Assembly: GCA_942492525.1 (NCBI GenBank)
Contig: CALOFI010000005.1
Coordinates: 128,001-142,399, forward strand
DNA: 14,399 bases
Direction: 5' to 3'
Source of the DNA: an uncultured Myxococcales bacterium
GTDB taxonomy: Bacteria > Myxococcota_A > Polyangia > Haliangiales > Haliangiaceae
In this document: one piece after another, positions 9,047-10,279 of the stretch
Layout: each line of letters begins with the position of its first letter
Numbering within the stretch: position 1 is the stretch's first letter
Program-made: the position numbers and the translations under genes
The notes under the pieces: generated by a model
The model's input: only the letters and a program-made list of their open reading frames with translations
The model's database searches: none
Told to the model about the DNA's origin: nothing

Positions 9047-10279
9047 ATGAGCTCGATCCCCAGCCACCGCTTCCGCGACGACGTGCTCGCCGGTCTCTCC
9101 GCCCGACCGCGCACGCTGCCGTGCAAGTACTTCTACGACAAGGCCGGCTCGCTGCTGTTCGATCAGATCTGCGAGCTGCCCGAGTACTACCTGACCCGCG
9201 CCGAGACCGCGCTCTTGCAGGCGCACGCCGACGATCTCGCGGCGGTGATCGGGCCCGACGCGGTGCTGGTCGAGCTGGGCAGCGGCAGCTCGGTCAAGAC
9301 GCGGCTGCTGCTCGACCGCCTGCCGGCGCTCGCGCGCTACGTCCCGGTCGACATCTCGGCGCGTCATCTGCATGACACCGCGGCGACGCTGCGCCGGCGC
9401 TACCCGGAGCTGCGCGTGGAGCCGGTGGTCGCCGACTACGCCCACGGGCTGCCCACGCACGCCGCGCTGGCCAGCGCGCCGGGCAGCACGTCGACCGTGT
9501 TCTTCCCGGGCTCGAGCATCGGCAACTTCGCCCCGGCGGAGGCCGCCGCGCTGCTGGGTCGGATGCGCGCGCTGGCCGGTCCGGGCGGCCGCCTGCTGGT
9601 GGGCGTCGACGCCGGCACCGACGAGGCCGCCGTGCGCGCGGCGTACGACGACGCCGCCGGCGTCACCGCGGCGTTCAACAAGAACCTGCTGGTGCGGATC
9701 AACGACGAGCTGGGCGGCACGTTCGCGCTCGCGCAGTTCCGCCACGAGGCGATCTGGGACGGCGAGCACCATCGCGTCGAGATGCGCCTGGTCAGCACGG
9801 TCGCGCAGTCGGCGCGCGCCGCGGGGCAGACCTTCGCCTTCGCCGCGGGCGACGTGATCGTCACCGAGCATTGCCACAAGTACGGCGTCGAGCGCTTCCG
9901 CGCGCTGGCCCGCCAGGCCGGCCTCGAGCCCGGCCGCCTCTGGAAGGATCCCAGCGGCCGGATGGCGATGCACGAGCTGCTGGTTCCGGACGCCGCCAGC
10001 GCGGCCGGGACGGCCGGCGCGGCCGGGGTGGCCGGCGCGGCCGGCGCGGCCGGGGTGGCAGGCGCGGCCGGCGCGGCCGGGGTGGCAGGCGCGGCCGAGC
10101 GCAAGACCGGCTCCCGACCGCGCGTCGGCGGCCGACGCAGTCGCCGACGCCGACGCAGTCGCCGACGCAGTCGCCGACGCCGTCGCAGTCGCCGACGCCG
10201 TCGCCGACGCCGACGCCGACGCCGACGCCGACGCCGACACGGACCAGCGCGGCCTCGCAGCAAGCTCCGACTGTCCTGA
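9047..10279 (+). CDS. egtD: L-histidine N-alpha-methyltransferase EgtD, with an ~85-aa low-complexity C-terminal extension of uncertain reality
   Basis: GGAGG at 9035-9039 precedes ATG 9047. The hallmark [26 protein letters not shown] and the SAM-MTase motif [11 protein letters not shown] are present. The conserved EgtD domain ends near ...[16 protein letters not shown] (~nt 10020). The frame then continues with no stop through (AGAAGVAGA)x3 and an Arg-rich run ([12 protein letters not shown]...) to the TGA at 10277-10279, inside repeat unit R1. No stop codon exists in any + frame between ~9960 and 10277. Confidence 0.8.
10013..10093 (+). repeat. 27-nt tandem repeat x3 (gccggcgcggccggggtggcMggcgcg)
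   Basis: Three head-to-tail copies read from the sequence. In the egtD frame they encode AGAAGVAGA x3. Confidence 0.7.
10128..10245 (+). repeat. hexamer/12-mer microsatellite (GACGCAGTCGCC / GACGCC)n
   Basis: gacgcagtcgccgacgccgacgcagtcgccgacgcagtcgcc...gacgccgacgccgacgccgacgccgac, read from the sequence. It translates as poly-Arg/Ser in the egtD frame, PT-rich in frame 1 and DA-rich in frame 3. Confidence 0.7.

Follow-up and report, generated by a model that had tools for sequence, protein, structure and literature searches.

What does it mean when the gene of a well-known enzyme continues for 97 codons into repetitive DNA and ends in a long run of Arg? The question is raised by egtD, encoding an L-histidine N-alpha-methyltransferase, in a stretch of 14,399 nucleotides (nt) from an uncultured Myxococcales bacterium (assembly GCA_942492525.1, contig CALOFI010000005.1, positions 128,001 to 142,399 of the forward strand), which is termed the window herein and whose own numbering is used throughout. 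The egtD open reading frame (ORF) lies at 9047-10279 in frame 2 of the plus strand and encodes 410 aa. We consider it probable that this is a real run-on, in which the stop codon was lost where repeats replaced the junction between egtD and a following DUF427 gene, and that the resulting tail is young, unconserved, and without a selected function. On sequence comparison, the poly-Arg tail is most likely a by-product and not a functional domain.

Over most of its length the ORF encodes a standard EgtD. The TIGR03438 profile matched aa 9-309 with 376.1 bits (cutoff, 290.9; profile positions 2-299 of 301), PF10017 matched aa 9-310 with 358 bits (profile positions 1-301 of 304), and the Mycobacterium smegmatis EgtD structure (PDB 4uy6/4pim) aligned to aa 7-307, reaching residue 314 of the 321-residue chain. 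Because all of these alignments stop there, we place the end of the conserved domain at around nt 9976-9985 (aa 310-313) and the end of the enzyme at about V313; an earlier note, made from the sequence of the window, had put the domain end near nt 10020, which is too far downstream. The core (9047-9985, plus strand, aa 1-313) retains all 72 invariant columns of an 18-sequence alignment of EgtD homologues, has a G+C content at third codon positions (GC3) of 0.96, and was modelled by AlphaFold2 with a predicted local distance difference test score (pLDDT) of about 90 or more up to approximately aa 315. The gene starts at 9047, after a gap of 12 nt from the end of egtB at 9034, and the same gene order was found in the relatives L086 and L088. 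On these sequence criteria, the assignment of the catalytic protein is unambiguous over aa 9-310 and holds by every test but C-terminal length. The full-length profile match, the invariant columns, and the position just downstream of egtB are as in the family. An EgtD would be expected to end no more than about 10 residues past the last beta-strand, at a total of approximately 300-350 aa, whereas the ORF in the window carries 97 additional C-terminal codons and lacks the DUF427 gene found after egtD in the nearest relatives.

The tail was not found in any other EgtD that we compared. Among the best 120 of 2192 EgtD homologues (50-71% identical), which ranged from 297 to 352 aa, none covered the tail, and in an alignment of the closest homologues all ended 0-16 residues past the HEL(L/M/R)V motif. 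A second comparison, independent of gene calling, used 71 egtD loci in genome DNA, for each of which the tblastn match was extended to the first in-frame stop. Relative to V313, the frame closed at -3 to +11 residues (median, +2), with no locus above 30, as opposed to +97 in the window. A comparison of C-terminal lengths among orthologues had been put forward in the earlier note as a check, and its outcome (0 of 120 homologues and 0 of 71 loci with a tail) argues against the tail as a feature of EgtD. Our literature searches on C-terminal extensions of EgtD and on stop loss with tandem repeats returned nothing relevant.

Beyond V313, whose codon ends at nt 9985, the egtD frame runs 97 codons (291 nt) to a TGA at 10277-10279. 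After HELLV313 the translation reads PD, AASAAGTAG, two copies of AAGVAGAAG, AAGVAGAAE, 11 residues, an Arg/Ser run, and 13 final residues. The DNA beneath it, given here for the plus strand, begins with a minisatellite of 9-nt period and 92% G+C (9986-10102), within which Tandem Repeats Finder (TRF) reported a 27-nt repeat at 10011-10102 (3.4 copies, 96% matches); by repeat register, four 27-nt copies can be laid out from 9992, the first being diverged and the last three near-identical. There follow a short linker without repeats (10103-10132; the 11 residues are encoded over 10100-10132), a hexanucleotide-type satellite termed S0 (10133-10237), and the left flank and outer stem of R1, the first unit of a palindromic repeat array (10238-10279), which supplies the 13 residues and the TGA. 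S0, seen by TRF as a 12/18/30-nt satellite at 10131-10238, is built of GCCGAC, GCCGTC, and GCAGTC units with periods of 12 and 18 nt, and in the egtD frame encodes 35 residues, 31 Arg and 4 Ser. Translation and TRF thereby bear out the earlier description of a frame that crosses a 27-nt repeat and a microsatellite, spells AGAAGVAGA-type repeats followed by poly-Arg, and terminates at the TGA inside R1. When the tail was compared with Pfam, a Collagen match below the cutoff was obtained. AlphaFold2 gave it no tertiary fold (pLDDT below 50 for aa 330-362); the Arg run was modelled confidently as a single isolated helix, which we regard as uninformative about structure and as likely an effect of the homopolymer.

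Base composition alone is enough to account for an open frame of such length. The 291 nt of tail DNA are 83.5% G+C, with only 15 T, and among 20,000 mononucleotide shuffles of this DNA 58% were free of stops in one frame (P = 0.58) and 17% in all three. The egtD frame stays open over 291 nt because the region combines this G+C content with repeat units that contain no stop; the repeats themselves are far beyond chance. On the plus strand, frame 1 has no stop at 9373-11134, frame 2 none at 9041-10277, and frame 3 none after 9855, and therefore all three frames are open over 9858-10276, which includes nearly all of the interval (from about 9960 to 10277) for which the earlier note had reported the lack of stops. 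Frame 1 over the tail DNA reads as a Pro/Thr/Gln/Ser tract, in keeping with the Pro/Thr-rich reading given there.

Codon usage was scored under the window's own usage, with the genes of the same window as reference (GC3, 0.97), and it divides the tail in two. The first 39 codons, the Ala/Gly repeat, have a GC3 of 0.95; since several frames on both strands of the minisatellite score about equally as coding, this part is uninformative about translation. The remaining 58 codons have a GC3 of 0.60, and the Arg run alone (17 CGC, 12 CGA, 2 CGT, and 4 AGT codons) has 0.49. CGA accounts for 12 of the 31 Arg codons in the run (39%) and 14 of 37 in the whole tail, versus 2 of 104 in the reference genes, and AGT for 4 of 4 Ser codons in the run and 4 of 8 in the whole tail, versus 0 of 45. 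When read in the egtD frame, the satellite scored -7.47 bits per codon, which falls within the range obtained when real genes are read out of frame (-6.9 to -7.6) and is far from the in-frame egtD core (-4.83), while its other two plus-strand frames scored -4.9 and -5.1. The Arg run is hence written in codons that the genome avoids, scores as out-of-frame sequence, and seems not to have been shaped by translation. From these scores it follows that the poly-Arg arises from reading a (GCCGAC/GCCGTC/GCAGTC)n satellite in one of three possible phases.

These data bear on the proposal that EgtD here carries a functional, protamine-like cationic tail, for example one that binds nucleic acid, polyphosphate, or membrane, or that tunes the level of the enzyme. 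The frame is open and would be translated if the sequence is right, the repeat periods are multiples of 3, and an AlkZ-like ORF nearby has a basic Lys/Ala/Pro repeat tail, so the lineage does have tails of a basic kind. Nevertheless we hold a functional tail to be very unlikely. As a feature of EgtD, it had been one of the alternatives of the earlier note and finds no support: the tail is unique with respect to the best 120 homologues and the 71 loci, its avoided codons and out-of-frame score resemble those of an untranslated frame, and a satellite of the same type, in inverted orientation, is plainly non-coding where it forms the spacers that separate the palindromic units. As a methyltransferase of small molecules, EgtD has no need that we know of for a polycation tail. 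Histone-H1-like tails rich in Lys, Ala, and Pro occur on bacterial DNA-binding proteins, for example the myxobacterial CarD-type proteins, and are not of Arg/Ser composition. The egtD tail resembles them in being basic, repetitive, disordered, and C-terminal, but it differs in its Arg/Ser composition, in its avoided codons, and in its attachment to an enzyme that does not act on DNA, and it does not belong to the H1-like class.

An elaboration of the functional proposal, which we find just as hard to credit, would have EgtD made with its tail of approximately 97 residues (about 31 of them Arg), with slippage in the 27-nt and 6/12/18-nt repeats, which are in frame, and the slowing of ribosomes on CGA-coded poly-Arg tuning its abundance or localisation, and with the array providing a stop codon in the manner of mycobacterial interspersed repetitive units (MIRUs). 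If true, it would place a control that varies with repeat length on ergothioneine synthesis.

The position of the repeats relative to the expected stop codon, and the genes that flank it, point to what happened at the 3' end of egtD. In the three nearest relatives for which genomic context was available (L001, L086/L087, and L089), egtB and egtD are followed by a stop and then, 2-16 nt on, by a DUF427 (PF04248) gene, the junctions being at 5225-5231 in L001, 2322-2329 in L086, and 1173-1194 in L089. The window has 1.2 kb of repeats between egtD and asnS in place of the DUF427 gene, and a tblastn search of the window for a DUF427 remnant found none; the absence of this gene shows that a real rearrangement took place at the egtD 3' junction. 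The egtD gene of L089 ends ATG CAC GAG CTC ATG GTC CCT TGA (HELMVP*), and the equivalent codons in the window are ATG CAC GAG CTG CTG GTT CCG GAC. The 9-nt periodicity starts at this CCG (nt 9986, codon 314), directly after V313 and where L089 stops, and the junction between egtD and foreign repeats therefore lies exactly at the expected stop. The break in synteny thus coincides with the missing stop codon. Loss of the true stop to repeat expansion or error, the other alternative of the earlier note, is supported accordingly: homologues end between -3 and +11 of V313, the repeats start at the next codon, and the relatives have a stop and a DUF427 gene. When the palindromic unit and the tail were compared by blastn with 79 egtD loci, matches were at chance level only.

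Part of this could also be produced by an error of sequencing or assembly, whereby a real stop at about codon 315-318 was missed, either because a base is missing or because the GC-rich repeat tract was mis-assembled. One T inserted at 9989 would give CCG TGA and a product of 314 aa ending HELLVP*, the same end as that of L089, and one T inserted at 9998 would give a stop at codon 318 and a product of 317 aa; moreover, a tract of such G+C content and repetitiveness is hard to sequence and to assemble. A missing T, be it an assembly error or a real 1-nt deletion, is the simplest route to the observed state. Only these two specific insertions work, however. An earlier stop cannot be produced by any single deletion or by a substitution upstream of codon 351, and nearly every other single insertion or deletion lengthens the ORF to 696 or 1198 codons, because frames 1 and 3 are open far past 10277. 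The missing T would not lie within a homopolymer, and the absence of the DUF427 gene indicates a real rearrangement at the junction, not a base error alone. The idea of a sequencing error is in this way narrowed to a T at 9989 or 9998, either of which restores an orthologue-like end, and other single-base changes drop out. We regard an artefact as possible but rather unlikely.

Our preferred reading remains a real run-on following stop loss. Going beyond the observed anatomy of the tail, its uniqueness among homologues, its codon usage, and the loss of synteny, we infer the order of events and the tail's lack of function as follows. The ancestral egtD stop, at about codon 315, would have been lost at a rearrangement breakpoint or by an insertion or deletion, and 1.2 kb of tandem-repeat DNA would have taken the place of the egtD-DUF427 junction upstream of asnS. 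The egtD frame would then run on to the first chance stop, the TGA in the stem module of R1. Provided that the sequence contains no error, ribosomes must translate on into the tail, and the extension would probably be variable in length and tolerated rather than selected; translation of the CGA-rich poly-Arg may lower the yield of EgtD. Extension of proteins at the C terminus by loss of a stop codon, with the ORF running into 3' non-coding DNA, is a general phenomenon. As in such cases, the conserved part of the protein ends where relatives stop, and the extension lacks conservation, shows the codon statistics of non-coding DNA, and is closed by the first stop to occur by chance. The locus differs in that the run-on crosses tandem repeats, making the extension extremely low in complexity and probably variable in length.

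Several observations weigh against this interpretation. All of the repeat periods are multiples of 3, as would suit a translated tract, although the periods in the non-coding spacers are likewise. Basic low-complexity tails occur in the same genome, on the AlkZ-like ORF. The first 39 codons of the tail are coding-like in GC3 and could represent a real short extension. Finally, the best EgtD match is 71% identical, so that the comparison reaches no same-genus genome in which conservation of the tail might be seen.

For annotation, we advise caution: the 410-aa product should not be passed on as a new domain architecture, an "EgtD with a poly-Arg tail"; the extra 97 codons most likely come from the frame running into repeats, or else from an error. 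In genomes above 70% G+C, approximately 100 codons can be gained with the loss of one stop, and what looks like a striking homopolymer can come from a hexanucleotide satellite. The locus adds one more example to a known class of event and draws attention to the repeat array downstream. Should the tail be real and translated, it would offer a natural test case of how bacteria handle a long, CGA-rich poly-Arg at the end of a housekeeping enzyme.

More unusual than the tail is the array of palindromic units and satellites that separates egtD from asnS. Positions 9986-11176 form one repeat block, in which the minisatellite and S0 are followed by four palindromic units, R1 (10259-10410), R2 (10511-10661), R3 (10703-10853), and R4 (10973-11123), together spanning 10259-11123, with G-rich tri-/hexanucleotide satellites of GGC/GAC type and variable length, detected by TRF, separating and following the units: S1 (10410-10500), S2 (10658-10692), S3 (10850-10962), and S4 (11120-11176), which extend over 10410-11176. 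The units are imperfect palindromes of about 152 nt, 93-100% identical to each other, with start-to-start distances of 252, 192, and 270 nt. R2-R4 are 99-100% identical in the left arm and 98-99% in the right arm; R1 has diverged furthest. The palindromic unit folds at -109 kcal/mol, with z values of -5.2 on one strand and -5.0 on the other. A 1-nt insertion or deletion in the loop sets R1 apart from R2-R4, yet downstream of it the identity is still 94-95%, and all six frames of the R1-R4 units score as non-coding; the unit is therefore kept at the DNA level, not at the protein level. S0, the DNA that reads as poly-Arg, corresponds to S1 and S3 in inverted, C-rich form and is 76-87% complementary to them. 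In the minimum free energy fold S0 pairs with S1 around R1, in an ambiguous register, and the centroid structure drops this pairing.

The TGA that terminates egtD lies in the outer-stem module of R1, TCCTGAGCnGGCC (the stem module is also written TCCTGAGC), which is common to two hairpins found elsewhere. These hairpins, L080 (FTAG01000794.1, 920-1006) and L081 (FTAP01000057.1, 1518-1607), are solitary and intergenic, come from two unrelated metagenome contigs, and carry the modules TCCTGAGCnGGCC and GGCCGTGTCGAAGGAC on both arms, without the inner insertion and the satellites of the window units. As the modules recur in these hairpins, R1-R4 may belong to a more widespread family of intergenic palindromes in high-GC bacteria, a suggestion that draws on two loci. 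When metagenomes were scanned with a 23-nt core of the unit, there were 0 matches; a less strict stem pattern returned 6 loci, and apart from L080 and L081 none of these was related. Within the window the unit occurs only as the four tandem copies. Rfam searches of the window and of L080/L081, at the gathering threshold and at E <= 1, identified no family, only sub-threshold hairpins of the miRNA-precursor type.

Known intergenic repeats offer partial parallels. As imperfect intergenic palindromes of approximately 150 nt that form long hairpins, with related intergenic copies at two other loci, R1-R4 are reminiscent of repetitive extragenic palindromic (REP) sequences and bacterial interspersed mosaic elements (BIMEs), of enterobacterial repetitive intergenic consensus (ERIC) sequences, and of Correia elements and other elements like miniature inverted-repeat transposable elements (MITEs). 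They differ from these in forming a tandem array with trinucleotide-satellite spacers and in belonging to no Rfam family, and R1-R4 gave no evidence of terminal repeats or target duplications. Literature searches on myxobacterial REP elements returned nothing relevant. MIRUs are tandem intergenic repeats located between co-oriented genes and carrying internal stop and start codons (PMC12548453). The array in the window is likewise tandem and intergenic, has co-oriented flanking genes, and has stop and start codons within the repeat, but its units are about three times longer, are palindromic, and have inconsistent mini-ORF frames.

The frames of the array matter for a further proposal, that the tail DNA serves another frame or gene: a linker in frame 1, an N-terminal extension of AsnS in frame 3, a gene on the minus strand, or MIRU-like mini-ORFs by which egtD would be coupled to asnS. 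In its favour, frames 1 and 3 stay open across the array, frame 3 continues into asnS, and in the satellite frames 3 and 1 outscore the egtD frame. All four units carry a TGA close to the 5' end (10277, 10529, 10721, and 10991) and an ATG close to the 3' end (10404, 10655, 10847, and 11117), and these pairs delimit Gly-rich (Gly/Asp-rich) frame-2 mini-ORFs of 22 codons from R2 to R3 and 48 codons from R3 to R4, ending RAS(K/N)LRLS. The ATGs of R1 and R4 fall outside the frames that would be required, that of R1 (10404) being out of frame with the next TGA and that of R4 (11117) lying in frame 2 and not in frame 3, the frame of asnS. The 1-nt difference of R1 shifts all frames while the DNA stays 94-95% identical, and no frame of the units scores as coding. 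No ORF gave a Pfam match above the cutoff for any of the proposed roles; frame 1 gave only sub-threshold, low-complexity matches to Kunitz_BPTI and EGF_PEAR1L, five minus-strand ORFs over the region gave none, and the frame-3 plus-strand ORF matched over the AsnS domains only. A concatenated six-frame translation of the unit matched nothing at E <= 1 among 5.8 billion proteins. Since AsnS profiles begin at about 11235, no N-terminal extension is needed. We hence consider use of this DNA by another frame or gene scarcely credible. A MIRU-like coupling of egtD to asnS, for which it can be said that egtD does stop in R1, finds no support because the frames of the R1 and R4 ATGs do not fit.

Genes lie on either side of the array, in a window of 73% G+C. 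Downstream, asnS (asparagine--tRNA ligase; 11211-12644, plus strand) matched NF003037 with 659 bits; its start is the ATG at 11211 or that at 11226, and profile position 5 aligns near nt 11247. A scan for promoters and terminators over 9800-11400 returned zero sites. Upstream, egtB (ergothioneine biosynthesis sulfoxide synthase; 7601-9034, plus strand) matched TIGR03440 with 514 bits (cutoff, 360), as well as the Pfam families FGE-sulfatase and DinB_2, and its true start may lie downstream of 7601. Two further ORFs, at 573-2579 (plus strand) and 41-391 (minus strand), had no Pfam match but are coding-like, with GC3 values of 0.97 and 0.92, and would encode uncharacterised proteins.

The AlkZ-like DNA glycosylase ORF (6141-7736, minus strand) matches PF06224 over aa 75-411 of 531. 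Within its C-terminal tail of about 120 aa (6141-6500, minus strand), a 6/18/30-nt tandem repeat at 6209-6348 encodes a histone-H1-like stretch rich in Lys, Ala, and Pro, PTKAKAPTKAKAPANAKSPPKAPPNAKAPAKAKAKARAPAKAKAK, and this tail is plausible as a real DNA-binding tail. The stop codon of this ORF directly abuts the start of a TANGO2-family gene (5346-6140).

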